Below, in pieces: positions 17,161-36,869 of a stretch of DNA of 64,000 bases. The translations under genes and the position numbers were made by a program. Below the pieces are notes generated by a model. It was not told where the DNA came from and made no database searches. It worked only from the letters and a program-made list of their open reading frames with translations. Each line of letters begins with the position of its first letter. Positions within the stretch are counted from its first letter, which is position 1. The DNA is from Candidatus Saccharimonadales bacterium (lineage in GTDB: Bacteria; Patescibacteriota; Saccharimonadia; Saccharimonadales; OMJO01): positions 74,401 to 138,400 of the forward strand of contig DATIID010000008.1 of assembly GCA_035480035.1 (NCBI GenBank), read 5' to 3'.

Positions 17161-17577
17161 TTAGCCACCTGCAGTTTGTGTCTTGTTTAGGACGAACTTG
17201 ACGATTAGCTGAGCTAATGCCACGATGACCAAACCGACAATCGCGTACAGAATGGTATTCTTTGCACCCGAAACGGCACCAGCGTCACCGTTAGATGTAA
17301 CGTACTTAAGACCACCGATGATGATCATGACTACACAAACTAGACCAACAACTACTGAAAAGATGTTGATGGCGATTGTAACAATGTTTTGCACAACTGT
17401 TACAGCGTTGTTTGCTGAAGTACAGCTAGTTGCCGCCAGGTCAGCGTTAGCACCACAAGACAAGTGGTTAGACCCAGTTAGCACTGCAGCTCCGGCAGTA
17501 GCAGGCGCAGCCAGCGGTGTTAAGAACAAAGCCGACATTGTGCCTATCATTAATAATTTTCTAATTGCTTTTATCAT
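17161..17577 (-). CDS. VirB2/TrbC-like T4SS pilin family protein, paralog 1
   Basis: Signal peptide; variable Cys-containing segment; two hydrophobic helices separated by the short polar loop KYVTSNGDAGAVSGAKNT; conserved C-terminal ILYAIVGLVIVA helix. Topology is that of VirB2-type pilins. Confidence 0.55.
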   Translation of the reverse strand: MIKAIRKLLMIGTMSALFLTPLAAPATAGAAVLTGSNHLSCGANADLAATSCTSANNAVTVVQNIVTIAINIFSVVVGLVCVVMIIIGGLKYVTSNGDAGAVSGAKNTILYAIVGLVIVALAQLIVKFVLNKTQTAGG

Positions 17578-17657
17578 TTTATAGACCTTTCTTATTCTAT
17601 TGTATCTACTTATACCATAACCATTTTAGATATAGCAATAGTGTTTTTCAATACTAA

Positions 17658-18032
17658 TTATCTTATCTTGTTTAAAACGTATTTTACAATGCCTTGCGCC
17701 AAGGCCGCAACAATGATTCCAACTATGGCATAGATCAGGGTGTTTTTAGCACTCGCCACGGCATTTGGGTCGCCATTGGAAGTAATGTATTTGAAACCAG
17801 ATATGATTACCATAACGACGGCGACAAAGCCGATTACGACGGCGAAAAGCTGAACCGATTTGGCCGCAGCGCTTGGAATATTAGTACTACCGGCCGGAGC
17901 TGTACAACCAGTACCCAAACCCGCGCCATTACAAACTGCCTGTTGAGCGGCCGAAGCAGCCATAGCAACAACTGGTGTCAGTAATATGGTCGCGGTGATG
18001 AAAGCTATTACTAAGTTAATAAATTTTCGCAA
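17658..18032 (-). CDS. VirB2/TrbC-like pilin family protein, paralog 2
   Basis: Same architecture; loop KYITSNGDPNAVASAKNT; 2 Cys in the variable region. Confidence 0.55.
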   Translation of the reverse strand: MRKFINLVIAFITATILLTPVVAMAASAAQQAVCNGAGLGTGCTAPAGSTNIPSAAAKSVQLFAVVIGFVAVVMVIISGFKYITSNGDPNAVASAKNTLIYAIVGIIVAALAQGIVKYVLNKIR

Positions 18033-18047
18033 AATATTTCTCCTTTT

Positions 18048-18473
18048 TCATAGTATATGATTTAAAGCAAAGGCAATTGTAGCTTGAGCTGAAACTGCCA
18101 CGATTAATCCAACTACGGCGTAGAGTAAGGTGTTTCTGGCAGTAGCAACTCGTTGGGCATCGCCTCTGGAATTCATAAATTGAAAACCAGAGTACAAGAT
18201 AACTGCCACTGATGCTAGACCAATTATCCAACTGAGTATTAATGACGCCTTGATTATAACGCCGTTATTGCCAGCAAACGGGTTGGCTGAATATGACTTG
18301 CAAGCAACCGAAGCAGTCGCCGAGCCTTGGCACACAGGCAGGGTTTTCGCGGTAGCACCTCCAGATGTCGGGCGGTTAAACGGATTGAAGGCCAGGGCTT
18401 GGCTAGACTGTAACAATACAAAGCTAGTGGCTAGTAGCAAGATTAAGGCAAGGCTTGTTTTAAAGTATTTCAT
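18048..18473 (-). CDS. VirB2/TrbC-like pilin family protein, paralog 3
   Basis: Same architecture; loop FMNSRGDAQRVATARNT; 2 Cys. Confidence 0.55.
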   Translation of the reverse strand: MKYFKTSLALILLLATSFVLLQSSQALAFNPFNRPTSGGATAKTLPVCQGSATASVACKSYSANPFAGNNGVIIKASLILSWIIGLASVAVILYSGFQFMNSRGDAQRVATARNTLLYAVVGLIVAVSAQATIAFALNHIL

Positions 18474-18763
18474 GACGTTACCTTAGGAATGACAAACGCT
18501 ACGATTGAATAGGCCATAATAGCCACTACTAAACCAACGATGGCATAAAGAATCGTATCTTTGGCTCTGGCGGTTGCTTGTGGATCGCCTCGCGACATGA
18601 CGTATTTAAAACCACCCAACGCGATAATAAATACGGCGATGGCGCCTAAAGTCGCCAATATGGCGGTGACAACATTGTGAATGGTAGCTGAACTGGGAGT
18701 AGCACTCGGCAAGCTTTTGGGACGGTTTATATATACGGCTACCAGATAGATTAGAGCGTTCAT
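18470..18763 (-). CDS. VirB2/TrbC-like pilin family protein, paralog 4 (short, no Cys-containing variable region)
   Basis: 97 aa; helix-loop(KYVMSRGDPQATARAKDT)-helix core only; overlaps paralog 3 by 4 nt and paralog 5 by 1 nt (translational coupling). Confidence 0.5.
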   Translation of the reverse strand: MNALIYLVAVYINRPKSLPSATPSSATIHNVVTAILATLGAIAVFIIALGGFKYVMSRGDPQATARAKDTILYAIVGLVVAIMAYSIVAFVIPKVTS

Positions 18764-19164
18764 TAAGTACCCCCTAGTCGATTGCCAATAAATCCAACGG
18801 CCGAGGCGGCAATGACTGCAATAACTGCGCCGATTAAAGCATTAACTATAGTACGACGGGCTTCTGCGGTTTTATCTGGTTCGCCCTGGCTGATTAGATA
18901 AGTAAAGCCGCCCCATATAACAAAGGCAACTGCTACCAAGCCGGCAATTCTCATGACTATATCCAGAGCCGCTAAACCGATTAGCCAATATTGTCCCCAG
19001 CTATGAATAGTTACTTCACATTTACCAGTCAAAGCACTCTTGGAATAGGACAAATACTTGTACCACCTTGGCAAAGCAAAAAAGTTGCTAGCTTTACTAC
19101 AAGTTACTGCCGGGGCGCCAAAAAACCGAAGTTGAGTTAGGGTATACGTCAGAAAAGCGTACAT
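18763..19164 (-). CDS. VirB2/TrbC-like pilin family protein, paralog 5
   Basis: 133 aa; loop YLISQGEPDKTAEARRT; 2 Cys in the N-terminal region. Confidence 0.5.
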   Translation of the reverse strand: MYAFLTYTLTQLRFFGAPAVTCSKASNFFALPRWYKYLSYSKSALTGKCEVTIHSWGQYWLIGLAALDIVMRIAGLVAVAFVIWGGFTYLISQGEPDKTAEARRTIVNALIGAVIAVIAASAVGFIGNRLGGT

Positions 19165-19165
19165 C

Positions 19166-19840
19166 CTAGAAGATACCTCCCGGCACTAACCACTGAATGA
19201 ATGACCAGAAGAAACCATAGGCTACTAGCGCGAAGACGGCATTAGCGATCTTGCGACGAGCTGCGGCCACGGCATTGGGGTCGCCACGAGAAGCTGAGTA
19301 CTGGATCCCGCCGACCACAATCATAATGGTGACGAGTATGCCGACGCCGATCCCCAGAAAATCAATTGCCGGGAACAACCACCTATTAAAGATCCGGCAA
19401 CTGGTTGGCGAATCACTAGCCCTAAGCAAACACGATCGTTCGCCTTTTCTATCTGCTAGTTCGGCCACGGAAACTGGAGTGCTGCTATTGCCCCCGCCGT
19501 TGCTGTTATTGCTACTGTTATTACCAGTTTTATTTCCGCCACCTTTATTACCACCAGTAGCAAAGACACCAGATGTACAACTGGCTGGCTGATAAACAAA
19601 GCCGCCGCCGCCGTTTGCTAGCTGTAATATGTAACATTTGTTAGCTACCGGATAGCCGCCGGTCGTCACCGGCCAATGACCACAACCACCAACGCCACTA
19701 GGAGCAACTAGCGATTGATAACAGCGCGGCGCGGCGGCAAATACTGATTGAGTATTTAATATTATTGCGGCAAAGGGCATAAGAATAGCCGCTAAAATAA
19801 CAATAAGTGCTTTTAGGTTTTTATTTTGTTTCATTTTCAT
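19166..19840 (-). CDS. VirB2/TrbC-like pilin family protein, paralog 6, with extended Cys-rich and G/N/S-rich N-terminal domain
   Basis: 224 aa; signal peptide; 6 Cys; low-complexity GGNKGGGNKTGNNSSNNSNGGGNSS tract; then conserved helix-loop(QYSASRGDPNAVAAARRK)-helix core. Confidence 0.45.
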   Translation of the reverse strand: MKMKQNKNLKALIVILAAILMPFAAIILNTQSVFAAAPRCYQSLVAPSGVGGCGHWPVTTGGYPVANKCYILQLANGGGGFVYQPASCTSGVFATGGNKGGGNKTGNNSSNNSNGGGNSSTPVSVAELADRKGERSCLLRASDSPTSCRIFNRWLFPAIDFLGIGVGILVTIMIVVGGIQYSASRGDPNAVAAARRKIANAVFALVAYGFFWSFIQWLVPGGIF

Positions 19841-19969: not shown

Positions 19970-22924
19970 ATGAAAACGGCTAATCCCGTTCGCTATAGGC
20001 TAATTGTGGCTATTTTTTTGTCGCTTTTTGGGTTTACGTTTGTAACTCAATTGATTCATCCCCAAACTGTTCAAGCGGTCACCAACTGTGCTCACTGGGA
20101 TAGAAGTGTCATTCTTTGTCCCGGCGGCCAACTTTTTTACGACAACCAGATTGATGGTAACTACACTTATGTCCTTCAAGGTGATCCCGACAGTTGCGAT
20201 GACACAATTAAGAAGCTTACAAATAACAATACTCAAGCTACTCTACATACCTCGGTACCAGATCCGGTTAATGGTGGCTGTAAAGAGACCACTTCCGGTA
20301 TAACGCTTTCTTTAAACGCACAGTCCAGAATGCCGTTTGTGTATGTGGACGCGACACACATTATTACCAGTGACGGTAAAACTTCCTACACTTATAACAG
20401 TGCCTTAAAACTGTTCGTCGAAGTCGGCGGCGACAAATGTAAAGACACACTTAAAGTAATTGCTGGCGGACCTAATGGAGCCAGCGCGACCGTACAAGTT
20501 ATCGCCAGCACTGGCGGAGCAAATACTGCATACGATAAATGGGCTCAAGAACTAGCATTCGACAAAACTAAAAGACAAAGCATAAGTGGTTGTACCAAAT
20601 ATACCAACGTTGCGGCCAATACCTACAAAGTCAGTACCCAATTTTTAAAACAACCGTCGATAGCAAACCCGGCTATCGCTGGCAGCAACGGTGGTGGTAG
20701 TAATGGTGGTACAGGCGATGGTAGCGGCGGCGGCGGTGTCAATTTTGATTGTGAAGTAAGGTTTTGGAACCCGTTAACTTGGATACTTTGCCCGGTCGTT
20801 GAACTACTTCAAGGTTTCTTAAACTGGTTTGACGTGCAGATTGACGACATGTTGGAGGTTAATCCCAATTATATTGACACCACGAAGACTGAAGGCAAGG
20901 GCTTTTATCAAGCTTGGTCGTCAATTCGTACTATTGCGTTGGTGTTGATAGTGATTTTCGGATTGGTCATGATAATCTCGCAAGCAGTTTCGGTCGGGCC
21001 GTTTGACGCTTATACTATCAGAAAGGTTTTACCCAGGTTGGTGATAGCAACAATCGGCATTGCCTTGTCTTGGAATTTAATGATAACGGCGATAAATCTA
21101 ACTGGCGATCTGGGCGGTTCGATCAGAGGTATCCTGAGCGCACCATTTGATAATCTGACGCTACCGTCACTTGGGCAGGGCGCCACTGGTATATTTGCTG
21201 CCGGTATTGGTACATTTTTAATCGGTACCAGCTTTTTGGGTGCCGTTAGTCTACTATTAACCGCCGTTTTGGCAGTTTTAATTGCGTTCTTTGTACTAAT
21301 AATTAGGCAAATTGTAATAGTGTTGCTGATCATCTTGGCCCCTATTGCCATCGCCTGTTATGTTTTGCCGAATACTTCCAGGGTCTGGAAACTGTGGTGG
21401 GAGTCATTTAGTAAGGCCCTGCTGATGTTTCCCATGATTGTAGCCTTAATTGTCGCCGGACGAATCTTCGCCAAAGTATCGGCGGTCGACGGCGATGTGC
21501 TTCACCAGGTTATCGCTTTCATTGCTTATTTCTTACCGTATTTCCTAATCCCAGCCACGTTCCGTCTAGCTGGTGGTGCTTTATCGACCATTGGTGGCTA
21601 CGTCAACAATCAGGGTAAGGGCGGCTTTGACCGACTTAAGCAATTCCGTCAACAACAGTACAAGACAACTATGGATAAAAACCGGGGGGGTAACCGTCTG
21701 CTTGGTGGTAGAACTGACCCGACGACTGGTAAAGCCATTAATTTTCGCGGTAGAATTAACCGGGGCATGCAAAACTCTACTTTGTTGCCAGGTGCAATAG
21801 CAGCTGGGGGTGTAGTTCGAGGAGTAAGAGATGCCCGTGGACAAGTTAAAGCAATTAGGCGAACAGCTGACTTTGCAGCCGCACAGGAAATTATGAAAGA
21901 TCCAGCTTTTGGAATGCTAGGTGGTAACGAACATAACATGGTGGGTATGCTTGGTACATCTCGTTCGGATATAATTACTAAACTTAGAAGCACAGATTCT
22001 TATAAAGATGCCAGCGACCAAGACTTGAACGAATTAGCTGACACTATCGAGCAACTTCAAAGGGTTCATGGTGCCAAACCATTACAAATTGCCGCTTTCA
22101 TGCAAAAGGCGACCAGCAAGAATGCCTTTAACGAAGCCGGCCAAATGGAGAGAGAAATTGCTGAAGTGGCTGGTGGTGATGGAATCCTGGCCAGCAATCT
22201 AATAGCCCACGCCCGCTCGGCTCAAACCCAAGCTGGCCGAGCCGATAATGTTACTGCTTTTGGCGAGCAGTTTGGGATTGTTGACGATGTTATGCACAAT
22301 CGTATTAAAATCGGCGAACGCACCGAAATTGATCAAGAGACTGGAAAACCAAAGCAAGTACCAATATATGACACTACCAAGAATCCCGAGCAAGTCCAGG
22401 CTGCCGCCGGTCAACGCGTCATACGTGGAGCTTTGGAAACTACTAGTCCAGGCCAAATCTTAGGTGGTACACAAAGAAGTGTTAGCAATTTCATGGCGGA
22501 ATTAGGCCGGCAGTGGGCAGATGCCATTGATCATGGCACAGTAGATGAAATGACGAATGTTGGCGCCAGAATGGCCACCTTCAGGAATGCCATGGGCGGC
22601 GCCACGCCTCAAGTCAGGGAAGAAGTATCAAAAATGCTAGATTCAGCCGGTGTCAACCTTGACTCTGACGAATCTTCTGACCAACAATTAGCCAGAAGGA
22701 TTGCCGACGCTAACATTAGCAGGAGCGGAACACCATTATCTGAAACTGATCGAATTAAGAGTACAAGGACTGTTATGGAAGAAATTCGAACCAAGGCCGG
22801 CCTGTACGATATGGGCAATCGCGAATTAACGCCCGAGGAACGTGCCAATCAGCAGATGATGATGAGTGGTGGTCAGCCACCTGGAACCGGTATCCCGCCC
22901 TCGGGGAACCCCGACGAAAGATAA
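19970..22924 (+). CDS. VirB6/TrbL-like polytopic T4SS membrane protein with N-terminal Cys-rich ectodomain and long C-terminal extension
   Basis: Track ORF starts at TTG 19934; the ATG at 19970 gives a canonical signal peptide (MKTANPVRYRLIVAIFLSLFGFTFVTQLIHPQTVQA). About 270-aa Cys-rich region; Gly-rich linker; about 6 TM helices (aa ~320-560); about 440-aa hydrophilic tail; position is divergent from the pilin operon. Confidence 0.4.
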   Translation: MKTANPVRYRLIVAIFLSLFGFTFVTQLIHPQTVQAVTNCAHWDRSVILCPGGQLFYDNQIDGNYTYVLQGDPDSCDDTIKKLTNNNTQATLHTSVPDPVNGGCKETTSGITLSLNAQSRMPFVYVDATHIITSDGKTSYTYNSALKLFVEVGGDKCKDTLKVIAGGPNGASATVQVIASTGGANTAYDKWAQELAFDKTKRQSISGCTKYTNVAANTYKVSTQFLKQPSIANPAIAGSNGGGSNGGTGDGSGGGGVNFDCEVRFWNPLTWILCPVVELLQGFLNWFDVQIDDMLEVNPNYIDTTKTEGKGFYQAWSSIRTIALVLIVIFGLVMIISQAVSVGPFDAYTIRKVLPRLVIATIGIALSWNLMITAINLTGDLGGSIRGILSAPFDNLTLPSLGQGATGIFAAGIGTFLIGTSFLGAVSLLLTAVLAVLIAFFVLIIRQIVIVLLIILAPIAIACYVLPNTSRVWKLWWESFSKALLMFPMIVALIVAGRIFAKVSAVDGDVLHQVIAFIAYFLPYFLIPATFRLAGGALSTIGGYVNNQGKGGFDRLKQFRQQQYKTTMDKNRGGNRLLGGRTDPTTGKAINFRGRINRGMQNSTLLPGAIAAGGVVRGVRDARGQVKAIRRTADFAAAQEIMKDPAFGMLGGNEHNMVGMLGTSRSDIITKLRSTDSYKDASDQDLNELADTIEQLQRVHGAKPLQIAAFMQKATSKNAFNEAGQMEREIAEVAGGDGILASNLIAHARSAQTQAGRADNVTAFGEQFGIVDDVMHNRIKIGERTEIDQETGKPKQVPIYDTTKNPEQVQAAAGQRVIRGALETTSPGQILGGTQRSVSNFMAELGRQWADAIDHGTVDEMTNVGARMATFRNAMGGATPQVREEVSKMLDSAGVNLDSDESSDQQLARRIADANISRSGTPLSETDRIKSTRTVMEEIRTKAGLYDMGNRELTPEERANQQMMMSGGQPPGTGIPPSGNPDER

Positions 22925-22949
22925 TCAACCTAAATTCTAAAGTAGATTA

Positions 22950-22978
22950 TTGACTATTTCGCTAATGTTTGCTATAGT
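22950..22978 (+). promoter_or_regulatory. Strong sigma70-like promoter TTGACT-17-TATAGT, leaderless transcript for the downstream gene
   Basis: TTGACT 22950-22955, 17-nt spacer, TATAGT 22973-22978; ATG at 22988 lies about 9 nt downstream, no RBS. Confidence 0.4.
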
Positions 22979-22987
22979 ATCATTACT

Positions 22988-24364
22988 ATGTCAGAACTTC
23001 CTCCTGATACAAAAACTATAGAAACACCAACAGTCACCGCCGAAATTCCAACTGTTCCGATGCAAGAAGTTAATGCTGGTCCTACAGAAGCATATATATT
23101 AACCGACGAGCCTGGTGTGGCTTGGCTAGGCATGAAACGATGGGTTACGGCATTTAGAGCAGGTATGGCTGAGCATGTCATCAATCAGTCCGACATTAGC
23201 CATCGAGTATCTAGTCATTCAGCCGAATATGCCCTTCAAGAAGATCCTGTCCATACGGCGGCTCTTTCGACACTTAAGAAACCAGGTAGCGTTAGGGTAA
23301 TAAAGGGTGGTTTTAATCTTGAGAGTGGCGATTCCAAAATTAAGTTTGAGCCTGGCATTGTACCAAAATATCATTCAGAAACTGGGGAATTTACAGGAAT
23401 TGATTTTGATTTTGGGCTCAACATAAATGATAGGAACAAAAAAATTAAAGATGGGATCGACGCCGAAGCAAGAGGCGAGTCCCAAAAAAGAGATGTAGAC
23501 AAGGAAGAAGTTTATATTCTCTCCGAACCCGTAGAACGACGCCGGGCCGAGCGGCCCGTCACCTGGCCAGAACGCCGAGCTTCTCTATTTCGAGCACGCC
23601 AGGTTAGAAAAATGAATAATTTACGAATTTCAAGTGGTCGTTTGAAAAAAGACTATTCCACAAAAGCCCAAGAACTTGGCAGTATAGCGCCACGAGATCT
23701 ATTCAGTGCCGAAAGAGGAATGCATGGGCGCAACGTTAGGACGTTTGGCGAAAGACGCGATTATGCTAAAGCCTATCGACAACAACGTAAAAACACTGAG
23801 GGTGGCATAATTAAACGAGCCCTGGGATTGCCAGTTGGGTATGACCGAATTCGCGAAACTACTGAACAGGCCATTCGCGGTGAGTCCCCTATGCAAAAGC
23901 TAAATATTCGTCGACAAGAGAGCGCCAAAGATAAAGCCAAAGGTCTAAGAGAAGATGTTGAGGTGCTCCGCGCACAACACCAGCACGCCAAAGGACGACA
24001 ACAAAAACGTAACAACTATATGGATGAAATAAAGCGTAGGAATACTTACTTTGCGTCGCAACCGGCAAACATTGACAAAACCGAGGCCGAGTTTGTAGCT
24101 GCTTCACCTTTGGTCACAAAATTAAAGAAGCTATCAGCTCGCGCCACTAAATCGCGTGCCGCAAAATCGACGGTTGATATTGCTAGACTAAACCATCAGA
24201 TTCGTAGCCAAACCGACAGTGATAACAAACAGGTATTAGCCGAGAAATTGACCCGGACTCGACAAAAAAAGGCCGGCTTAGCTTCGAAGGCTTACAACCG
24301 ATACAAGGATATAAATCGACGCCGAACTGAAACCGGTAAGGTTGATGTAACCGGCTGGATGTAA
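22988..24364 (+). CDS. Hypothetical highly basic, low-complexity (K/R/E-rich) protein within the T4SS-like locus
   Basis: 458 aa, no TM, predicted largely disordered/charged; no recognisable domain. Confidence 0.3.
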   Translation: MSELPPDTKTIETPTVTAEIPTVPMQEVNAGPTEAYILTDEPGVAWLGMKRWVTAFRAGMAEHVINQSDISHRVSSHSAEYALQEDPVHTAALSTLKKPGSVRVIKGGFNLESGDSKIKFEPGIVPKYHSETGEFTGIDFDFGLNINDRNKKIKDGIDAEARGESQKRDVDKEEVYILSEPVERRRAERPVTWPERRASLFRARQVRKMNNLRISSGRLKKDYSTKAQELGSIAPRDLFSAERGMHGRNVRTFGERRDYAKAYRQQRKNTEGGIIKRALGLPVGYDRIRETTEQAIRGESPMQKLNIRRQESAKDKAKGLREDVEVLRAQHQHAKGRQQKRNNYMDEIKRRNTYFASQPANIDKTEAEFVAASPLVTKLKKLSARATKSRAAKSTVDIARLNHQIRSQTDSDNKQVLAEKLTRTRQKKAGLASKAYNRYKDINRRRTETGKVDVTGWM

Positions 24365-25685: not shown

Positions 25686-26648
25686 ATGAATCCAAACTCT
25701 AAAACACCAAGTAGTCGACCAACCTCAGGCGCAGTTGGGGGCCAGTATTATGGTGACATTGGTAAATCTCCTTCGCCAATCGCTGGTCCCACACCAGCAG
25801 CCGGCCATGAGCCGCCCCGCCCGCAAAATTATTCTCAGTTTACGCCTATGGGTCAGGCCGCGCCTGCTCCGGGTGCTCCCGGTGGACCACGGGCGCCCTT
25901 GCCGCCACACGTCATAAACCCGAACAGCACTCAAAACATGTTGCAAATTGCCGAAATTCGCGACGGTTTGGTAATTATGAATGATGGCTCATTCCGCTCA
26001 ATCGTTATGGCTCGATCAATTAACTTTGATTTGATGAGCCCGGACGAGCGTGAAACGATTGAATATGCTTATCAAGGTTTTTTGAATTCGTTGCATTTTC
26101 CGGTTCAAATTTTCATTCGCACTGAACGAGTTGATATTCGTCCTTATTTGGAACGGCTCGATAATTTACGGCGGCAACAGGACAATATGTTATTGGCTCT
26201 ATTGATGGAAGACTATATAGGCTACGTTGAAGAGTTGGCCAGCCAAACCAACATTATGGACAAGAAGTTTTATTTAGTTGTGCCGTATTTTCCGGTCGCC
26301 GATATTCAAAAAGCGATTACTCAAAGCAAAAATTTCTTCACTGGTTTAATTGATATGTTTAACAAAAAAGCGCGACGTGTCACCATCAACGAGGCTGAGC
26401 TAAACAATGCTAAGGTGGAACTGCGCGAACGGGTTCAGGGTGTTTTGGCTGGTTTGCAACAAGCCAGTATCAAAGCCTTGCCGCTTGATACCCAAGAATT
26501 GATCGAGTTGTACTACGACATTTACAACCCAGACACTGCTACCCGCCAACAGCTCAAAAACTTTGACGGTATTAGCGAACCTGTGGTGACCAAAGGCGAG
26601 GGCGAAGCGCCCCAACCAGGACTAACTCCGGAGAATAACAATGGCTAA
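25686..26648 (+). CDS. Protein with Pro-rich N-terminus and VirB4 N-terminal-domain-like region (possible 5' part of a split virB4)
   Basis: Segment DGSFRSIVMARSINFDLMSPDERETIEYAYQGFLNSLHFPVQIFIRT resembles the start of Gram-positive-type VirB4/TraE ATPases (recalled, not searched); its stop overlaps the next ATG by 8 nt. Confidence 0.3.
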   Translation: MNPNSKTPSSRPTSGAVGGQYYGDIGKSPSPIAGPTPAAGHEPPRPQNYSQFTPMGQAAPAPGAPGGPRAPLPPHVINPNSTQNMLQIAEIRDGLVIMNDGSFRSIVMARSINFDLMSPDERETIEYAYQGFLNSLHFPVQIFIRTERVDIRPYLERLDNLRRQQDNMLLALLMEDYIGYVEELASQTNIMDKKFYLVVPYFPVADIQKAITQSKNFFTGLIDMFNKKARRVTINEAELNNAKVELRERVQGVLAGLQQASIKALPLDTQELIELYYDIYNPDTATRQQLKNFDGISEPVVTKGEGEAPQPGLTPENNNG

Positions 26649-28563
26649 GAAAATTGACGCTGTCACCGCCGCCGAACAACAACGCTTGCTTGAAGAACAA
26701 CAAGTCCAAACTGCTTTTCAAAAAGGCATTACGGCGCTGCGCGATTTTATTGCACCCAGTTCCATCGAGTTAAAATCGACTTTTTTCCAGATTGGTACAC
26801 GTTATGCTCGAGCTTACTACGTTTATGGCTACCCGAGGCAGTTATTTACTGGTTGGCAGAGCAGCATAATCAATCTTGACGAAGTAATTGACCTGTCGAT
26901 GTACATTTACCCAGTGGAAAGCCAAGTTGTGTTGGAAAACCTGCGCAAAAAAGTCGGGCAACTGGAAGCTGGTTTGCAGATCGACGCCGAAAAAGGCCGC
27001 GTTCGAGATCCGGCCAAACAAATTGCCATTTTAGACGCTGAAGAAATGCGCGACAAATTGCAGGTCGGGGAGGAACGCTTCTTTAGATTTAGCATGTACT
27101 TCACGCTTTACGGTAGTAGCCAGGAAGAGTTGGAGTTTGTTTCGCGCAAAGTTGAATCGATTCTTGGACAACAGTTAATTTTTTCTAAGCCGGCCACGTC
27201 TCAGCAAGAGCAAGGTTTAAACAGTACGATTCCGCAGTTTATAGACCAATTGCAGATTAAACGTAATTTTAGCACTGGTGCGCTTAGTACCAGTTTCCCA
27301 TTCACCTCGGCTGATCTAACTCAAGAAAACGGTATCCTTTATGGCATCAACATGCACAACTCAGGTTTAGTTATCTTTGATCGGTTTACTCTAGAAAACA
27401 GCAATGCCGTGGTGTTTGCGAAGTCTGGCGCCGGTAAATCTTTCGCGGTTAAGTTGGAAGCTTTGCGAAGTCTGATGATGGGTACGGAGATTTTTATCAT
27501 CGACCCAGAGAACGAGTATCAGCGTATGGCTGAAGCCGTTGGCGGGGCATATATTCGACTGAGCCTAAACTCTGCGACTCGAATCAATCCATTTGACCTA
27601 CCGACTGTAGTGGATGTTGAGGAGGCCGACAACGCCTTGCGTAGTAACTTAATTACCTTGCATGGATTGCTGCGTCTAATGATGGGTGGTGCTCAAGCCG
27701 TCCTGGCCAGTGGTTCGTCAACTGCCGCACCGGCGCTATCTCCAGTTGAAGAGGCCGATCTGGATTCCTCCCTAATTGAAACTTATGCCCGCGCCGGCAT
27801 TACCAATGACCCCTTAACTCACAAGTCACCACCTCCCACCATTAATGATTTATATGACACACTCCTGCACATGGGTGGCTCGGGACCGCAATTGGCTTCG
27901 CGTCTACGCAAATATACCAGCGGCACATTTGCTGGCATTTTTTCTCAGCCCAGCAATATCGACATCAACAATACTATGGTGGTCTTTAACATCCGCGACC
28001 TAGAAGACGAATTACGACCGGTCGCTATGTACATCGTGCTGAACTATATTTGGAACAAAACTAAGGCCGACCAACAACGTCGTATCTTGGTCGTGGACGA
28101 GGCCTGGCAATTGATGAAATACGAGGACTCGGCTAATTTCTTATATTCGTTAGCGAAACGGGCTCGTAAATACAACCTTGGTATTACCACAATCACTCAG
28201 GACGTCGAAGACTTTATGGGTTCCCGTATGGGTCGGGCGATTGTGGCCAACGCCAGTATGCAGGTGCTTATGAAGCAAGCGCCATCGGCCGTTGATGTGT
28301 TATCTGATGTTTTTAAGTTGACCAGCGAAGAAAAGAAGCGGCTCAGCCAATTCCCGGTCGGACAAGGTCTATTCTTTGCAGGACAAAACCATGTGCACAT
28401 TCAAGTAGCGGCCAGCGCGACGGAAACTGGTTTGATCTCAACAACACCAGTCGCTAGGCAAGCAGCTGCAGCTCAGGCTAGTCAGTCAACCGGCGAACTT
28501 GACCAAGCCCAGGGCAGTATCGAACTGAACAATCAGCCACCACCGCCAGCGGGGGGAGTATAA
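26641..28563 (+). CDS. virB4: VirB4/TrbE-family T4SS ATPase
   Basis: IAPSSIELKS...IGTRYARAYYVYGYPR VirB4 region; Walker A AKSGAGKSF; Walker B RILVVDEAWQLM; 640 aa. Confidence 0.7.
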   Translation: MAKKIDAVTAAEQQRLLEEQQVQTAFQKGITALRDFIAPSSIELKSTFFQIGTRYARAYYVYGYPRQLFTGWQSSIINLDEVIDLSMYIYPVESQVVLENLRKKVGQLEAGLQIDAEKGRVRDPAKQIAILDAEEMRDKLQVGEERFFRFSMYFTLYGSSQEELEFVSRKVESILGQQLIFSKPATSQQEQGLNSTIPQFIDQLQIKRNFSTGALSTSFPFTSADLTQENGILYGINMHNSGLVIFDRFTLENSNAVVFAKSGAGKSFAVKLEALRSLMMGTEIFIIDPENEYQRMAEAVGGAYIRLSLNSATRINPFDLPTVVDVEEADNALRSNLITLHGLLRLMMGGAQAVLASGSSTAAPALSPVEEADLDSSLIETYARAGITNDPLTHKSPPPTINDLYDTLLHMGGSGPQLASRLRKYTSGTFAGIFSQPSNIDINNTMVVFNIRDLEDELRPVAMYIVLNYIWNKTKADQQRRILVVDEAWQLMKYEDSANFLYSLAKRARKYNLGITTITQDVEDFMGSRMGRAIVANASMQVLMKQAPSAVDVLSDVFKLTSEEKKRLSQFPVGQGLFFAGQNHVHIQVAASATETGLISTTPVARQAAAAQASQSTGELDQAQGSIELNNQPPPPAGGV

Positions 28564-28584: not shown

Positions 28585-31500
28585 GTGAGTAATAACGACT
28601 TAGAGGAACGCGAAACTAGCGGTGACGATTTTTCCAAAAATCTCGATGCCAAATATTCAAAGGCTGAACGCAAAAAACTTGAAGAAAAATCTCAAAAAGA
28701 AGCCGAATCACCAACCACTGAGCAACTCGCTAAAGACCGGCAAGAATCGGCCAAGTCGGCCGGACAAGATGACGGTAACAGTATTCCGTTTCGACAAGAG
28801 AAAAAAAGCCGCTTCAAAGGCAAAGGTAAGGGGGGTAGCCGTAGTCTTGCCAAAAAAGCGCTGATTGGTGGCGGCATTGGTGGCGGCATCGTCGCGCTAA
28901 TAATTACGATCTTTGTTAGCTTGTTGCCACTTAAGTTAATTCACATTTTTGAAAACTTGCAGCAACATTTTTTTGGTACTAGCGAATCGGCTGTCCAAAA
29001 CCGCTCCGAAAGATTACTTAGCGACTACCTCAAAAAGAAAGTAGCGCCAGGTATGACTATCGGTGGACCTTGTGGTCGCTGGAGCACTATTGATAAAAAT
29101 TGTGTCAAAAACTCACCAACTGACTCCGCGTCTGGCCGTTTATATAACGCTTGGCGGGACGCCCGAATTGAGAACGACTTATCGTCTAAATTCGGCATTG
29201 AGCTAGCCAAGACCGGTCCAACCCAATTCAAATTAAGCATCAACGGCACTGATTCAGGTGTTAATGTTGATGGCTGGTTAAACTCGACTAATGACAAAAC
29301 AACATTGTGGACAGCTATTGGTGGTCGGTCAGACGTCCGTCAAACATTTCGGCAAGCCTTTCAGAACGAGACATACCTTAAAAGGATTATGTATCGCTTC
29401 AAGGTCGGACGTTTACTGGAGCGCAAGTACGGCATTAAGCGGTGTGTGTTTGCTTGTAACGCCAAAGATAAGTTCGATGACTGGGGCGATAACAGCAGCC
29501 AAGCCTTTAAGTTAATGGTGATTCGCCGGGTCATAATTCCACACACCCAGTTTGTCGGCTTTGCGTTAGAGTGTATCATCACCAATACCTGTGGCAATAA
29601 TACGACTACGGATGTTACCCAAGACGGTGAAGACAATCAACGCCGTGACACGCTTGAGAAAAAGATAGCCGCAATGCTGCAGAAAAACGCTGTCGAGTAT
29701 AGTGCCGATTCGGTTTCTAAAATCGCGACAGTGGCCGAGCAGATATTAAAATACGATAAAGCTGGTGGCTTTACGAATTATTTAATTCAAAGCATTGCCG
29801 ATTCGGTTAGTAGCGATCTGGTTAGTGGTGCCACCGAAAAAGCGATACCAATTATTGGCTATATTGATATGGCGGCCAAGGTCTGGAGTACTGTAGCCAA
29901 CGCCGGACCGAAGATTAAGCGCTGGACATTCGCTATCACGACGACGGCGATGATTACGTACTATATGATGGGCGCTTCGCAAGCCAGCGAGATTAAAGCC
30001 GGTCATACTAACCATCAGGTAACAGGGTCTTTGGTTAGCGCCCTAGGCAATACCGCCGGCAGCGCCGGCCACCAAAACCAGCCAGCCGAAAACGCACCGC
30101 TGTATACCGCCCTGATAGGTGGTAATGGCCCGCCGCAGCGTTCGATTATTAGTACTATGCTACCTAGCGCTTTAGCGGCCGATCCGGCTAATCCAGATTT
30201 ATCGCCAAAAGCCTACACCTGTGATGACGGTAGTATATTGAATACCGCAAAAAGCCTAGTTTGTCCCGAGGAAAGTGTTAAAGCCAGTAATATTTTTGTA
30301 AAAATTTCCGATTTGTTTCATAGTCCACCATTAAGCGGGATAACTACATTCTTCAATATTTGGAATAAAAGTATCGGCACGATCTTGGGTTGGGTTGGTA
30401 AAATAGGTGCTCTCGGGTGGAATGTTGTTGACAATATTTTAAATGGTATAGTGCCCGGCTATAAAAGCGCCAAAGATGCCATTTTGGCGCAGGTCGGAAA
30501 GTTACTCGAAGCCGTGGCCCAATGGCTCATACCGTCGCCGATATCTGACAACATGAGCGGTGCCAGATCGTTTGATATGTTAGCCGGTGGGGCCGATGCC
30601 GCCGGATCCGACTATTCGCATTATGGTTTAGGTGCCAAGCGGGTAACTGATCAAGTGGCGGCCAGGATAGAGCAAGAACAAGAAGACCAGGCTTTACAAG
30701 ATTTTCAAAGCCGGCCTTTCTTTGCGCGGATGTTTGATGTTCAGGATGCTCATTCGCTAGTCTCACAGCTAGCTATGGATGTGCCGATAAGCACCAACAC
30801 TATTGTCCAAAACGGTTTGGCGTCATTTATCTCAAATCCATTCACGAAAATATTCAACGGTTTTGCCGCTATGTTGCCGGGTGGCCAAAAAGTCCATGCT
30901 GCCCCAATCAATGACCCGTTTGGTATTCCGCAGTTCGCTTATGATTTAAATGATCCTGAAGTCCAGGCCGCCATGGGAGTAGACCCAGACACACTGACTG
31001 ATTCGGTTTGCGCTCAGATGAATAAAGACTGGGCTAACGGTACTGGTCAATTTGCTGGTACGCTAAAGATTGATCCCGATACCGGCAGTGATTACCACAC
31101 AAAAGTTGATCCCTGTTTATTAAATTCCGCGGCGGCCGGAAGCGCTGGTGGCTACTTCAGTACTGATGTATTGTCAGCGTCTGATCTAGGCCCGCCATCT
31201 TCTAACAACGGCAACAACAATCCGCCACCAACAGGAGGCGGAACTGGTGGTTATCATAATCCGTTTCATGATATGACTAATGTGTTGCAGAGCCGTATCG
31301 ATGAAGGCGTTGACTACGTCGCTAAGTCTGGCACGTCTGTGCCGGTTTACGCTATCGGCAATGGTGTAGTTGATATAGTTTCTTCAAACAGTACTTTTTA
31401 TACGACTTCGGCCGGTAACGCTGACTGGGTAACTTATCACCTAACTGATGGTCCGGCAGCTGGCAAATATATCTACATTGCCGAGGGCTGCCCCATTAGC

Positions 31501-31767
31501 ACAATTAGCCCGGGCGATAAAATCACCTGGCAGACGCGGCTGTGCGACATGGAGCCAGACAGCATTGAGATGGGCTGGGCGTCTGGTGGCACCATCCAAA
31601 CACCGGCGGCCAGCAATGTCTATATTGAGTGTCATCAAACAGCTTATGGTGTCAATTTTAATCAATTACTAGTTAAATTAGGCGCACCGACTGGCCATCC
31701 GGACACTGGTGGCGGAGCTTGTCTAAATATCGAGGGTAGCTTGCCGGGAGGGTGGCCGTCGTGGTGA
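28585..31767 (+). CDS. Large bitopic surface protein with C-terminal LytM/M23-like domain (catalytic residues apparently degenerate); PrgK/VirB1-analog candidate
   Basis: 1060 aa; charged N-terminus; single TM (IGGGIGGGIVALIITIFVSLL); C-terminal GVDYVAKSGTSVPVYAIGNGVVDIV matches the M23 core, but the HxxxD His and the HxH motif are replaced (IDEGVD; NVYIECHQ). Confidence 0.4.
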   Translation: MSNNDLEERETSGDDFSKNLDAKYSKAERKKLEEKSQKEAESPTTEQLAKDRQESAKSAGQDDGNSIPFRQEKKSRFKGKGKGGSRSLAKKALIGGGIGGGIVALIITIFVSLLPLKLIHIFENLQQHFFGTSESAVQNRSERLLSDYLKKKVAPGMTIGGPCGRWSTIDKNCVKNSPTDSASGRLYNAWRDARIENDLSSKFGIELAKTGPTQFKLSINGTDSGVNVDGWLNSTNDKTTLWTAIGGRSDVRQTFRQAFQNETYLKRIMYRFKVGRLLERKYGIKRCVFACNAKDKFDDWGDNSSQAFKLMVIRRVIIPHTQFVGFALECIITNTCGNNTTTDVTQDGEDNQRRDTLEKKIAAMLQKNAVEYSADSVSKIATVAEQILKYDKAGGFTNYLIQSIADSVSSDLVSGATEKAIPIIGYIDMAAKVWSTVANAGPKIKRWTFAITTTAMITYYMMGASQASEIKAGHTNHQVTGSLVSALGNTAGSAGHQNQPAENAPLYTALIGGNGPPQRSIISTMLPSALAADPANPDLSPKAYTCDDGSILNTAKSLVCPEESVKASNIFVKISDLFHSPPLSGITTFFNIWNKSIGTILGWVGKIGALGWNVVDNILNGIVPGYKSAKDAILAQVGKLLEAVAQWLIPSPISDNMSGARSFDMLAGGADAAGSDYSHYGLGAKRVTDQVAARIEQEQEDQALQDFQSRPFFARMFDVQDAHSLVSQLAMDVPISTNTIVQNGLASFISNPFTKIFNGFAAMLPGGQKVHAAPINDPFGIPQFAYDLNDPEVQAAMGVDPDTLTDSVCAQMNKDWANGTGQFAGTLKIDPDTGSDYHTKVDPCLLNSAAAGSAGGYFSTDVLSASDLGPPSSNNGNNNPPPTGGGTGGYHNPFHDMTNVLQSRIDEGVDYVAKSGTSVPVYAIGNGVVDIVSSNSTFYTTSAGNADWVTYHLTDGPAAGKYIYIAEGCPISTISPGDKITWQTRLCDMEPDSIEMGWASGGTIQTPAASNVYIECHQTAYGVNFNQLLVKLGAPTGHPDTGGGACLNIEGSLPGGWPSW

Positions 31768-33140
31768 CACCCAAACGCCATCTGAGATTTACTCGATCTG
31801 GGTCAGCATTTGACTTGGTATTGATGTTGTTGGTTGGTGTATTACTAATTAATTTAACTTGGCCGGCTATCGTGTCGGCAGCTAGCCTTTCACAAGACGA
31901 CAAGGAAGCTATCGTTGGAAACTGGCCGCACTGGACGACCCAAAATTTTGCCAGTGATACTTCCACCACCGGCGGTGGAACTTGTGGTGGTTCAAACGGT
32001 GCCACTGATGGCGGCAAAGTTTATTTTTTGGGTGACTCCATCGGCGTTAGAACAACTCCGGCTTTAACCACCGCTTTAAGTGCTAAAGGCTTTAAGCTAA
32101 AGTCAGATTCGTTATCGTCTCGTACATTATCGGGCGGAAGTGTTTCGCCCGACGGCTTAACGGCCGCTCGACAAGCCGCCGACAAAGCCTTCATTAAAAC
32201 GGCTAACGTAATCGTGATTGAACTGGGTACTAATAGCTCAGGATTTTCAAATGCTAACATTGATAAGTTAATTAGCGAAATTCGGCCAATTGCTCAACCA
32301 GGTGCAAAATTTTATTGGGTTGATACAGTCGTGGTTGGTCGTGGTAATGCATATGCGTCATCTTTTAGCGCAACCAATCAGACTATTTATGGCCACAAAT
32401 CAATCGGTAATTACGCCGTTATATCTTGGAACAAGAAAGTATTGGGCGCTAACGCCAATCCCCTTAATATTAGGCCTAGTGCCGTTGATACAAATGGTTA
32501 TATTGATAAGACTGACCATCTAGGTGTACATCCGACTGTTCCAAAGGGCTCTAATGCTTTGGCTAATTTAATTACCACGGCCGTTGTTAATGGCGGCGGG
32601 GGTTGTAGTGGTGGTGGTACTGTTGCTGGTAACTGTAACGAAGATAAGGTGTGGAATTTCTTTATTGGCAAGGGCTTATCCCAGGTCGCTACCGCCGGTA
32701 TCATGGGCAACTTTCAGGCCGAGTCCCACTTTGAACCACGACTTGTTCAATATGGCGGCCGCAACTATAAAGGTCAGGTTTCAGTCCAGGGCCAACCCTC
32801 CAGTCTTGCCGACTATTTGAACGCCGATGGCACGACTGGCTACGGCATTGCCCAATGGACAGCAATTGGCAGACAAACTGGTTTACACAATTATGCTACT
32901 AGTAAAAAAACCATTGACGGCAATCTAACTACCCAGCTTGGTTGGGCCTGGACGGAAATTACCAGTCCGTATTTTGCCCACGTTTATCTGGTCTTAAAAA
33001 CCTCAAAGAATATTGCTGAAATCAATTCGGTCTTCGGACATGAATATGAAGGCTATGGTACAAATACTGAAGCCACTCGTCTACAATTCGGTCAGGATAT
33101 TTTAAACGCCCTGGGTGGCGGCGGAAGTTCGTGTACTTAA
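31752..33140 (+). CDS. Secreted/membrane-anchored SGNH(GDSL) hydrolase fused to a lysozyme-like domain (putative peptidoglycan esterase/hydrolase)
   Basis: N-terminal TM/signal; SGNH blocks FLGDSIG, ELGTNS, DHLGVH; C-terminal AGIMGNFQAESHFEP...GYGIAQWT resembles the phage-tail-lysozyme-like muramidase family (tentative recall). Confidence 0.45.
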   Translation: MAVVVTPKRHLRFTRSGSAFDLVLMLLVGVLLINLTWPAIVSAASLSQDDKEAIVGNWPHWTTQNFASDTSTTGGGTCGGSNGATDGGKVYFLGDSIGVRTTPALTTALSAKGFKLKSDSLSSRTLSGGSVSPDGLTAARQAADKAFIKTANVIVIELGTNSSGFSNANIDKLISEIRPIAQPGAKFYWVDTVVVGRGNAYASSFSATNQTIYGHKSIGNYAVISWNKKVLGANANPLNIRPSAVDTNGYIDKTDHLGVHPTVPKGSNALANLITTAVVNGGGGCSGGGTVAGNCNEDKVWNFFIGKGLSQVATAGIMGNFQAESHFEPRLVQYGGRNYKGQVSVQGQPSSLADYLNADGTTGYGIAQWTAIGRQTGLHNYATSKKTIDGNLTTQLGWAWTEITSPYFAHVYLVLKTSKNIAEINSVFGHEYEGYGTNTEATRLQFGQDILNALGGGGSSCT

Positions 33141-33172: not shown

Positions 33173-34687
33173 ATGAGAAATAAACTCGCGGCACTAGTCC
33201 TAATATTTGTGGTGTTAGTAGCGGCGATTTGGTTTAAGGGCCAGTCATTTCTAGAAATTACAATTAATAACGGAGCGGGCCAGCTGTCCTATAGCTTGGT
33301 TAATCAAAATTCTCAAAAAATAATTAGCCTAAAAAATTCTTCAAACCATATCAAAAAAAGATTACCAGTGGGCAACTATGAATTGGTGGCAACTAATGGC
33401 AGTGGCAGTTTTTTGGCAGTGGCCAAAACCCATGGTTTCTTTCGGACTACAAGTATTAGTGGGAGTCTACAACCTGAGCGGGAAAGACAGTTTATTGGTA
33501 ACGACCCCGGTTCATGTATGAATTACATTGATAAAATTTTAATTTCTTATGATTGTGGTAGTTTGTTGAGCGACGCGGTGATTCATGCACCCGCTACGGC
33601 TAAGTTACCCAGTTACATCTACAAAAATCCAGCTGAAACTTTTGGCGGCGGCGAATCAGGAGGTGAGGCTTCAGAGATCACGCTCAATGGTTATATCCAG
33701 GGCACAATTACTATTGGCAATGACTTATGGGCTTTAATCCAATCGACCGCTGGCAAAACTGGACCGGTCATAGCAATTGCTAAATTGAAAAATAATCTGG
33801 CGTTGGATGATCGGGTCGCTTTAAGTGACCTTGATATTGACCTGTCGTACAATATAAAGCCGTATAAAAGTGGGTTTATTGTTTATGACTCAACGTTTGG
33901 TGGCGATATTTATTATTACGCCACGCCTCAATCTAAACCCGATATATTAAGTTTTGTCCGTCCTCAGAGCCGTGATTTAGCGGCCACCAGTTTAGACACT
34001 CACGACAACAAGATTCTAATGTTTTACTCACAACCAACTACAGACTCAGGTAAAGCAACTTCGGAAATTGCCCTTAGTTCAGATGGTCATGAGTCCCATT
34101 TTAAGCTTAACAAAGCCTATATTAGGGTTGGCTTTTGTGGCTCTGATAAAGTTTGTGCACTTGGCGACAAGGGTTTGGACATTTACAACATTAGTGGCAA
34201 AAAGGCCGCCATGTTATTCGCGGTCAACGGCATTACCGATTTCAGGACGTATGGTGACAGAGTAATTGCGGTTCGTCAAAAAGATATCATCGATTTAGAC
34301 GTTAGTTCGCAAACCGGCTTCATTTCCTACAGTTTTGGAGATTACGAGTATGCTGACATTCAAGCCGACCAGACCGGTTACATTTTGCGCCTAAACGGCC
34401 CAAGCGGCAGCTCAGCCTTATTGATTGATGAAAAAAGTAATGTCACAACGGCGATTGATAAGAAAGTTTTGGAGATTGGCGCCTGGTCCGAAGTAAAGTC
34501 GGTTTCGGCTTATGGCAATTACGTCTTTATTTCGCCGAATATTGGTGAGCCTGATCAGTACAACAGTCAACTGCGGATTTTTGACTATGATCCAGCTAAA
34601 CGCCAAGCGGCCACTAATAGCATTAACCAAAAGTTGCCGCCTTTAAATATCGATAAAAAATATACGGTTGTTAATTTACTTCAATAG
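33173..34687 (+). CDS. Hypothetical N-terminally anchored extracytoplasmic protein (last gene of the T4SS-like block)
   Basis: 504 aa; N-terminal TM (LAALVLIFVVLVAAIW) then a large beta-rich-looking domain; no motif recognised. Confidence 0.3.
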   Translation: MRNKLAALVLIFVVLVAAIWFKGQSFLEITINNGAGQLSYSLVNQNSQKIISLKNSSNHIKKRLPVGNYELVATNGSGSFLAVAKTHGFFRTTSISGSLQPERERQFIGNDPGSCMNYIDKILISYDCGSLLSDAVIHAPATAKLPSYIYKNPAETFGGGESGGEASEITLNGYIQGTITIGNDLWALIQSTAGKTGPVIAIAKLKNNLALDDRVALSDLDIDLSYNIKPYKSGFIVYDSTFGGDIYYYATPQSKPDILSFVRPQSRDLAATSLDTHDNKILMFYSQPTTDSGKATSEIALSSDGHESHFKLNKAYIRVGFCGSDKVCALGDKGLDIYNISGKKAAMLFAVNGITDFRTYGDRVIAVRQKDIIDLDVSSQTGFISYSFGDYEYADIQADQTGYILRLNGPSGSSALLIDEKSNVTTAIDKKVLEIGAWSEVKSVSAYGNYVFISPNIGEPDQYNSQLRIFDYDPAKRQAATNSINQKLPPLNIDKKYTVVNLLQ

Positions 34688-35751: not shown

Positions 35752-35777
35752 TGTCTTTATTGTACTTGAGTCGTTAC

Positions 35778-36869
35778 CTAGCTCTTGAGCGGCATGATAA
35801 CGTGTAGATAATCGGTACTCTTGGGATCTTTCAAGACGCAAGGTTCAAGTTTGCCGTTAAACGCAAACACCACATCCTCGCCGTTCAAACAATTCAGAGC
35901 GTCTAAAATGTAGCGTGAGTTCAGTGTAATTGTGCTGTCGGTTGATACTTCAGCAGTGGCGCTAGCCACGTTCTCGCCAAGCTGTGAAGCAATCGAATGA
36001 ATGCTCAGCTGGTTGGCTTTTTTATCTAGATCAATGGTTACGCTGCCGGCGTTTTCGCGGGCAAATAGACTGGACACTTTGGTCACGTTAGTTAGTTCGG
36101 CGCGTTTAAGTTTAGCGGTATTAGCAAAATTAGTCGGAATTAGTTTGCGGTAATCTGGATAGTTGCCCTCAATTTGTCTGGTGACCAGCTCAATCTCGCC
36201 AACTTTAAATAAAACTTGTTGGTCGTCATGGACGATTTCAACCTCATCTTCTTCATCGCCAACAATTCGAAGCAGGTCCTGAATAGCTCCGGCCGGAATT
36301 AACATCTGGACATCGGTCTTAAGCTTGATTAGGCCCTTTTCGGCTAATCTATAGCTGTCGGTAGCCACCAAAAAAAGCTGGCCGTTGAAAGTATGGATAT
36401 AGACACCGGTTAAAACTGGCCGCGACTCATCGTTACTGGCCGCGACCACTACTTGATTAAGCCCACTTTTTAAGGTTTTACCGCCAAGTTTTAGGGTTTG
36501 ACCATTCGAAATGGCCGGCATAACCGGAAAGTCGTCAGCTGGGACACCGTTAATGACCGATTTATAACGATCGGTACTGATGTGAAGTTTATTATCTTCA
36601 AGCTTCAGTTCAATAACACTGCTCGGCAAGCTAGCCACAAAATCCTGCATCAGTCTAGCCGGTACTGTAATTGAGCCTTCTTGTTCAACTTTTGCGCCAA
36701 TGTATTGAGTTATCGCGACGTCAAGGTTGGTAGCCGCAATACTAAGCCGATTGTTAGTGGTTTTGATCAGAATGTTTGACAAAATAGGTAGAGTACCTCG
36801 AGTGATAGCAATGCGCGAAACATTGCCTAAGGCTTTAGTTAGGTTTTCTTGGGTAACTTGAAGTTTCAT
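35778..36869 (-). CDS. dnaN: DNA polymerase III beta sliding clamp
   Basis: 363 aa; N-terminus MKLQVTQENL...LSNILIKT typical of DnaN; position between dnaA and recF. Confidence 0.8.
   Translation of the reverse strand: MKLQVTQENLTKALGNVSRIAITRGTLPILSNILIKTTNNRLSIAATNLDVAITQYIGAKVEQEGSITVPARLMQDFVASLPSSVIELKLEDNKLHISTDRYKSVINGVPADDFPVMPAISNGQTLKLGGKTLKSGLNQVVVAASNDESRPVLTGVYIHTFNGQLFLVATDSYRLAEKGLIKLKTDVQMLIPAGAIQDLLRIVGDEEDEVEIVHDDQQVLFKVGEIELVTRQIEGNYPDYRKLIPTNFANTAKLKRAELTNVTKVSSLFARENAGSVTIDLDKKANQLSIHSIASQLGENVASATAEVSTDSTITLNSRYILDALNCLNGEDVVFAFNGKLEPCVLKDPKSTDYLHVIMPLKS

Follow-up and report, generated by a model that had tools for sequence, protein, structure and literature searches.

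The window analysed here, a stretch of 64,000 nucleotides (nt) from Candidatus Saccharimonadales bacterium (assembly GCA_035480035.1, contig DATIID010000008.1, positions 74,401 to 138,400), contains two overlapping open reading frames (ORFs) that together cover the VirB4 ATPase of a type IV secretion system (T4SS). The first, ORF1, encodes a TrsD-like protein of 320 amino acids (aa), and the second, ORF2, encodes a short VirB4 of 640 aa (Table 1). The two ORFs overlap by 8 nt, ATGGCTAA, and ORF2 is located in the +1 frame relative to ORF1. The junction reads ...ccGGAGaataacaATGGCTAAg and holds a GGAG Shine-Dalgarno motif at positions 26630-26633, which is followed by a 7-nt spacer, the start codon of ORF2 at positions 26641-26643 and the TAA stop codon of ORF1 at positions 26646-26648. 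An earlier note on this DNA had given the coordinates of the two ORFs, the overlap, several short peptides and the Walker A and B motifs, and all of these were confirmed in the sequence.

Table 1. Positions in the window of the two ORFs, their parts and the neighbouring genes
Feature	Position	Strand	Basis or description
ORF1, TrsD-like protein	25686..26648	+	ATG start, 320 aa
ORF1 disordered Pro/Gly/Ala-rich leader	25686..25925	+	aa 1-80
ORF1 folded core, alpha/beta domain	25926..26585	+	aa 81-300
Junction ORF1/ORF2	26630..26648	+	GGAG Shine-Dalgarno, ATG, TAA
ORF2, short VirB4	26641..28563	+	ATG start, 640 aa
Walker A GAGKS	27427..27441	+	ORF2 aa 263-267; aligned to the P-loop of 4AG5
Walker B VVDEAW	28090..28107	+	ORF2 aa 484-489; aligned to VVDEAW of 4AG5
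PrgI/VirB3-like membrane protein, 409 aa	24424..25653	+	Pfam PF12666 PrgI, E 2e-10, 41.5 bits, cut-off 27
Five tandem T4SS (VirB2-like) pilin genes	17161..19840	-	Pfam PF18895 T4SS_pilin, all five ORFs
Cell-wall hydrolase, lysozyme-like (VirB1-like role), same operon	31752..33140	+	Pfam Phage_lysozyme2, E 1e-26
dnaN	35778..36869	-	Pfam DNA_pol3_beta (x3)
dnaA	37116..38483	-	Pfam Bac_DnaA, DnaA_N

ORF1 and ORF2 tile the VirB4 family

ORF2 scored 351.4 bits (E 1e-104) against the CD1110 VirB4 model (NF045971), which has a cut-off of 325, and scored under the cut-offs of TIGR00929, TIGR02746 and NF045975. Positions 182-733 of the 752 positions in the CD1110 profile are matched by ORF2 aa 27-586, and positions 292-892 of the Mbov_0397 profile are matched by aa 21-598. 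The Pfam matches are to P-loop_TraG, AAA_10 and DUF87, and residues 226-595 align to the crystallised C-terminal domain of VirB4 from Thermoanaerobacter (PDB 4AG5; E 1e-46). The second half of the N-terminal domain takes up aa 1-225 of ORF2 and is followed by the RecA-like ATPase domain at aa 226-595. The earlier note had placed the start of ORF2 at the next conserved block of VirB4, to which the peptides IAPSS (aa 37-41) and GYPR (aa 63-66) belong, and the start of the CD1110 match at position 182 agrees with this. A complete VirB4 N-terminal domain is not present on ORF2, as the profile match starts at position ~182 of 752, and profile positions 2-119, or up to ~182 in the TraC-F profile, fall on ORF1, a separate ORF. 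The C-terminus of ORF2 (28519-28563) is a short proline-rich tail, ...NNQPPPPAGGV.

The upstream part of the VirB4 profiles is matched by ORF1, with residues 83-199 at positions 2-119 of the CD1110 profile, residues 80-219 at positions 102-253 of the Mbov_0397 profile and residues 232-294 at positions 118-182 of the TraC-F profile. The two ORFs tile the CD1110 and Mbov_0397 profiles in order and do not overlap in profile coordinates, which was the alignment proposed as a check in the earlier note. ORF1 also matches the NCBIfam family TrsD/TraD (NF041427; E 1.3e-6), with aa 81-199 at profile positions 14-142, and contains the peptide DGSFRS at aa 100-105. The Pfam family PF26593 ('TraC-like') is a precomputed annotation on the ORF1 protein (P0001), on all 120 listed homologues and on the fused proteins described below; our own hmmscan of ORF1 gave no PF26593 match.

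Since a sequence search of the PDB with ORF1 gave chance-level matches alone (IF-2 and stomatin; E >0.2), we turned to a fold comparison. The AlphaFold2 (AF2) model of ORF1 has a predicted local distance difference test score (pLDDT) above 90 over most of aa 90-290. The top 14 PDB matches of this model are all TrwK/VirB4 chains of R388 (probability 0.96-1.00), and the matches that follow have probabilities of 0.30 or less. These fold matches, together with the match to CD1110 positions 2-119, bear out the suggestion in the earlier note that ORF1 resembles the extreme N-terminus of a Gram-positive-type VirB4. The folded core of ORF1 corresponds to about the initial 180-190 positions in the profiles of full-length VirB4, and ORF1 is the first sub-domain of the N-terminal domain of VirB4, detached from the rest. 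VirB8, PrgL and PrgI were also considered as identities for ORF1, the first and last of which the earlier note had named as families that would speak against its proposal. No such matches were obtained, and PrgI is encoded by a separate ORF upstream.

ORF1 has more than 7,500 homologues in the databases, and the best 120 clusters at 90% identity all have lengths of 247-373 aa. With this number of homologues for ORF1 and the score of ORF2 above the CD1110 cut-off, both are genuine genes. An exhaustive search of 1.84 billion representatives at 50% identity identified 2,330 clusters related to ORF1. Among the best 150 of these, 149 are at most 478 aa long, and a single one, P0242, has a length of 898 aa. 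All 150 clusters match within aa 11-318 of ORF1, most of them at aa ~75-315.

Counterparts in plasmids and in other Patescibacteria

The staphylococcal conjugative plasmids pGO1 and pSK41 (MPF_FATA, pGO1 subclass) encode the counterparts of ORF1 and ORF2 as TrsD/TraD and TrsE/TraE. The gene order in pSK41, in which the VirB3-like trsC is followed by trsD and trsE, resembles the order PrgI-ORF1-ORF2 in the window, and the short VirB4 (TrsE) is of similar size, 672 aa in pSK41 and 640 aa in the window. The break point is also common to the two systems, as aa 30 of TrsE corresponds to position 183 of the CD1110 profile and aa 27 of ORF2 to position 182. An alignment of the ORF1 family with pSK41 TrsD using hhalign gave a probability of 81% (E 1e-5) over ~175 columns, covering ORF1 aa 79-281. 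ORF1, with its 320 aa, is longer than the 227-aa TrsD because of the proline-rich leader of ~80 aa and a C-terminal tail. While the pSK41 genes are located 14 nt apart, the ORFs in the window overlap. Unlike pSK41, the system in the window is chromosomal and origin-proximal and has VirB2-like pilins, and the window ORFs that were scanned included neither a relaxase nor a coupling protein.

Compared with full-length VirB4 proteins (TrwK of R388, PDB 7O41/8RTD; those of the CD1110 and Mbov_0397 types; the fused proteins of ~900 aa), ORF1 and ORF2 together account for the same profile positions, in an unchanged order. However, the window encodes two polypeptides, and the break is placed inside the N-terminal domain rather than at the boundary of the ATPase domain. 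Fusions of VirB3 and VirB4 in some conjugative plasmids (cited in PMC12102498) indicate that the N-terminal end of the module is prone to fusion and fission without loss of function. These fusions run in the opposite direction, whereas PrgI in the window remains a separate ORF.

It was previously reported that TrsD is remotely homologous to the N-terminus of VirB4 (Quiñonero-Coronel et al. 2025, PMC12102498). According to the same study, no other T4SS component was as abundant in Patescibacteria as TrsD, which has 2,272 homologues there, 1,664 of them associated with virB4. A homologue of TrsD is among the genes listed as essential for Southlakia epibionticum ML1, and the T4SS of Patescibacteria is origin-proximal (PMC12102498). 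TrsD is not mentioned by name in the main text of Guglielmini et al. 2014 (PMC4027160). The T4SS described in Patescibacteria has the same set of VirB4, TrsD homologue, PrgI/VirB3 and VirB2-like pilins near dnaA/dnaN (PMC12102498; PMC10633639), and the window is no different in kind. The arrangement of a TrsD-like protein and a short VirB4 has thus already been published for Patescibacteria, and the pair in the window is an instance of it. Our additions are incremental: the exact tiling and a break point common with pSK41, a fused clade of the Berkelbacteria type, statistics on the junctions and a description of how the leader is built.

Fused single-chain relatives

The 898-aa protein P0242 aligns to both ORFs. 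Its residues 13-234 align to ORF1 aa 81-307 with 33% identity (E 3e-44), and its residues 310-886 align to ORF2 aa 12-603 with 49% identity. The two halves are connected by a proline- and alanine-rich segment of ~75 aa with a pLDDT below 50. As P0242 aligns to the two ORFs on either side of this linker, the break in the window falls at the disordered linker of the fused relatives. P0242 was seen on five contigs from four samples, directly downstream of a PrgI-like gene. The clade to which it belongs numbers about 68 clusters with lengths of 860-910 aa, which carry the labels Berkelbacteria or Patescibacteria. In the fused loci, the VirB3-like gene is followed by the fused VirB4, which matches the order PrgI-ORF1-ORF2. 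The single fused ORF that the earlier note had proposed to look for among orthologues is therefore found in a distant clade, while none is present in the 80 Saccharimonadales species loci described below.

An uninterrupted ORF of 906 aa (locus L086, 3029-5749) is also present in CP066695.1, a complete genome of 768,791 bp that belongs to the P0242 clade. This fused VirB4 is recorded as a protein of 582 aa, P0336, which begins at an internal ATG and leaves ~950 nt apparently non-coding. P0336, which is 83% identical to the C-terminal part of P0242, was considered as a close split relative and rejected, being a truncated gene call inside the 906-aa ORF. Database lengths of ~580-640 aa near the fused clade may likewise be truncated calls and not real splits.

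Junctions across the Saccharimonadales

To compare the junctions, we collected 80 loci, one per GTDB species and all from Saccharimonadales/Saccharibacteria, with an alignment of closer homologues, and analysed the junctions at the DNA level; the junction counts refer to 81 loci. In all 80 species loci, the ORF1 homologue ends in a stop codon, and ORF2 has a homologue of its own. The proteins are 55-74% (ORF1 homologues) and 77-84% (ORF2 homologues) identical to those in the window. The median length of the ORF2 homologues is 638 aa, and of the 71 complete ORFs, 69 have lengths of 620-654 aa. The other two end early although their loci continue (L042, 4771-5883, 371 aa; L080, 2139-2531, 131 aa), and these may be real pseudogenes or errors in the assembly of metagenome-assembled genomes.

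The spacing between the two genes is -1 nt in 44 loci (the TAATG type), -8 nt in two (the window and L064), -4 nt in two, 0 to +5 nt in 12 and +17 to +486 nt in the remaining 21. Frame offsets of 2, 1 and 0 occur in 53, 21 and 7 loci, respectively. The ORF2 homologue starts with ATG in 73 of the 81 loci and is preceded by a Shine-Dalgarno-like motif in 71. In L015, a gene of 133 aa (4963-5364) is located between the two halves; its sequence (...SVGANYLEANESLSKKDF...) resembles, by eye, the 'four-helix-bundle / 23S rRNA intervening-sequence' proteins. These junctions are incompatible with a conserved recoding site, a recent inactivating frameshift or an assembly error. The pattern fits two genes with independent initiation, the translation of which would be coupled in most lineages.

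Two subunits or one interrupted gene

ORF1 and ORF2, which are homologous to VirB4, tile it colinearly, show a conserved split and have independent start signals, very probably encode two separately translated subunits that jointly stand in for one canonical VirB4 in a chromosomal, origin-proximal T4SS of the Saccharimonadales. The earlier note had offered three options, a natural two-subunit VirB4, a programmed frameshift and a pseudogenising frameshift, and the first of these is the sole survivor of the comparative junction analysis. Programmed +1 ribosomal frameshifting in the 23 nt at positions 26626-26648 would yield a full-length fused VirB4, and the +1 frame of ORF2, its 8-nt overlap with ORF1 and the fused proteins known in a related clade are what could be expected from such a mechanism. 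However, there is no conserved slippery or stimulatory sequence, and all three frame relations occur among the relatives, including the same frame split by a stop codon. The two genes are spaced by -8 to +486 nt, and in L015 they are separated by an inserted gene. ORF2 starts from a GGAG and ATG of its own at canonical spacing, as is also the case in 71 of 81 relatives, and its N-terminus (MAKK...) is aligned from residues 1-7 in most relatives. The junctions thus lack the conserved shift site and the conserved frame relation of the prfB/dnaX type, and we consider frameshifting to be highly improbable. Two neighbouring ORFs that tile one family are also the classic signature of a frameshifted gene, and a formerly intact virB4 might have been broken by a pseudogenising mutation or by an indel from assembly or sequencing. 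Yet all 80 Saccharimonadales species compared, each assembled independently, have the split with two intact ORFs of 55-84% protein identity, and the 120 listed of the more than 7,500 ORF1 homologues all have lengths of 247-373 aa. Furthermore, pSK41 has the same break point, and S. epibionticum has a homologue that is listed among its essential genes (PMC12102498). An intact single ORF was not found in close relatives, and the fused forms, 33% and 49% identical to the two parts, are confined to a distant clade. Inactivation or a sequence error is, for these reasons, very hard to credit.

It could also be argued that ORF1, although of VirB4 N-terminal descent, is now an independent accessory factor, such as an adaptor, an assembly chaperone or a regulator that uses the leader, and not an obligate complement of ORF2. 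ORF1 is a separate gene that evolves faster than ORF2, it has a lineage-specific disordered leader with conserved end motifs, and up to 486 nt or another gene may be placed between its homologue and virB4 in some species. We regard this explanation as unlikely in view of the clade in which both parts are encoded as a single polypeptide, separated by nothing more than a disordered linker, the lack in ORF2 of the first ~180 profile positions of every full-length VirB4, which are exactly those that ORF1 supplies, and the spacing of -8 to +5 nt at 60 of 81 junctions. Nevertheless, several observations also speak against ORF1 and ORF2 being two parts of a single VirB4. The score of ORF1 against the TrsD model NF041427, 28.4 bits, is far under the curated cut-off of 200 bits, so that the link between ORF1 and TrsD is one of remote homology; pSK41 TrsD scores 227.6 bits against this model. 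The homologues of TrsD in Gracilibacteria do not adjoin virB4 (PMC12102498). The ORF1 homologues evolve faster than the ORF2 homologues, and the genes are 17-486 nt apart in a quarter of the species, such that tight translational coupling is not universal. The AF2 model of P0242, predicted from 60 fused homologues, is of low confidence, with a mean pLDDT of 61.5 and a predicted template modelling score of 0.40, and its Foldseek comparison with TrwK, colinear over ~870-950 columns at a root-mean-square deviation of ~31 Å, supports colinearity only and says nothing about the packing of the part equivalent to ORF1. Finally, the binding of the ORF1 and ORF2 proteins to each other is inferred.

Proposed roles of the two proteins

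If the two proteins jointly replace one VirB4, ORF1 would supply the first ~180-190 residues' worth of the N-terminal domain, behind a disordered leader that varies among lineages, and ORF2, from its own Shine-Dalgarno motif and ATG, would supply the remaining N-terminal domain and the ATPase domain. The overlap of stop and start codons most likely couples the translation of ORF2 to that of ORF1, which would result in similar amounts of both proteins, and these may join non-covalently to re-form an N-terminal domain like that of VirB4. In R388, VirB3 wraps the N-terminal domain of VirB4 (residues 15-400), which mediates VirB4 dimerisation (PMC9259494). Because of this arrangement, ORF1 is probably the module through which the ATPase docks to the PrgI/VirB3-like protein, the product of the gene directly upstream.

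The separation of the sub-domain may also be other than neutral and could allow the machine to load the ORF1 module on only some of the ATPase subunits. The Pro/Gln-rich leader, in which the MNPN start and the KSNPN end are conserved, could then serve as a flexible tether to another protein, for example PrgI, a pilin or a part of the cell-wall machinery, although we consider this quite unlikely. A precedent for asymmetric loading is R388, in which VirB3 binds only the six 'central' copies of VirB4. If partial loading and tethering were true, the TrsD-like proteins would act as an adaptor, with a regulatory or stoichiometric function, that is specific to the T4SS on which epibiotic Patescibacteria depend. 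The T4SS cluster of S. epibionticum ML1 (SEML1_0006-0019) is essential for epibiotic growth, and hence for the epibiotic lifestyle, in the one Saccharibacterium tested (Wang et al. 2023, PMC10633639). The tiling, the break point common with pSK41 and the linker of the sister clade together provide a concrete and testable structural hypothesis for the TrsD-like proteins. For genome annotation, short adjoining ORFs that tile VirB4 in Saccharibacteria and other Patescibacteria should neither be flagged as frameshifts or pseudogenes nor be merged. The reverse error also exists, as in the fused 906-aa gene of CP066695.1 that was recorded as 582 aa.

The proline-rich leader of ORF1

The leader of ORF1 contains 19 prolines, 11 glycines and 9 alanines, corresponding to 49% of its residues, and is predicted to be disordered (pLDDT about 44-61). 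The earlier note had described the first 80 aa as rich in these residues and without a VirB4 counterpart, and this holds, as the VirB4 profile matches to ORF1 begin at aa 80-83. The leader begins with MNPN and finishes with INPN directly before the conserved STQN. In 74 relatives, in which we defined the leader as the segment before the conserved S/T-x-Q motif, it has a length of 32-134 aa (median 75) and contains 23% proline, 14% alanine and 13% glutamine. Conservation is limited to the start, M[ND]P[NSD], and the end, K[ST]NPN. Neither the fused clade nor pSK41 TrsD has this leader, which is a variable disordered extension. In the window (25686-25925) and in the ORF1 homologues of loci L005-L084, the leader nearly always has these two end motifs, so that an NPN motif is found at both ends, and this could be a short linear interaction motif. 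Proline-rich low-complexity sequence recurs at the termini and in the linkers of proteins across this T4SS; besides the leader of ORF1, examples are the tail of ORF2, the extension of PrgI and the linker in the fused clade (P0242 residues 235-309).

Genomic context

The gene immediately upstream of the split VirB4 encodes the PrgI-like protein. The PrgI domain covers aa 7-93 of its 409 aa, and the remaining ~300 aa form a C-terminal extension rich in proline, glutamic acid and glutamine; the equivalent protein of pSK41 has 135 aa, and those of the fused-VirB4 clade have 130-139 aa. Downstream, genes for a recF-like protein, dnaN and dnaA span positions 34690-38483, with dnaN and dnaA located 7-10 kb from ORF2, and since these two genes are nearby, we place the T4SS cluster at the chromosomal origin region. 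Neither a relaxase nor a coupling protein was identified among the 30 window ORFs scanned against Pfam, which are part of the ORFs in the window, and several ORFs in the cluster had no family match.

Four large ORFs of the operon (996, 458, 1060 and 504 aa; 19934-24364, 28585-31767 and 33173-34687, plus strand) gave no significant Pfam match, and those of 458 and 1060 aa gave no NCBIfam match either. The 458-aa ORF is extremely rich in lysine, arginine and glutamic acid, and the 1060-aa ORF has a charged N-terminal region followed by a hydrophobic segment. The four ORFs presumably encode divergent VirB6/VirB8-like proteins or lineage-specific parts of the T4SS. The five pilin genes are paralogous and divergent from the operon of the split VirB4. 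This arrangement is unusual for a monoderm-type T4SS but has already been noted for Saccharibacteria (PMC10633639, PMC12857230).

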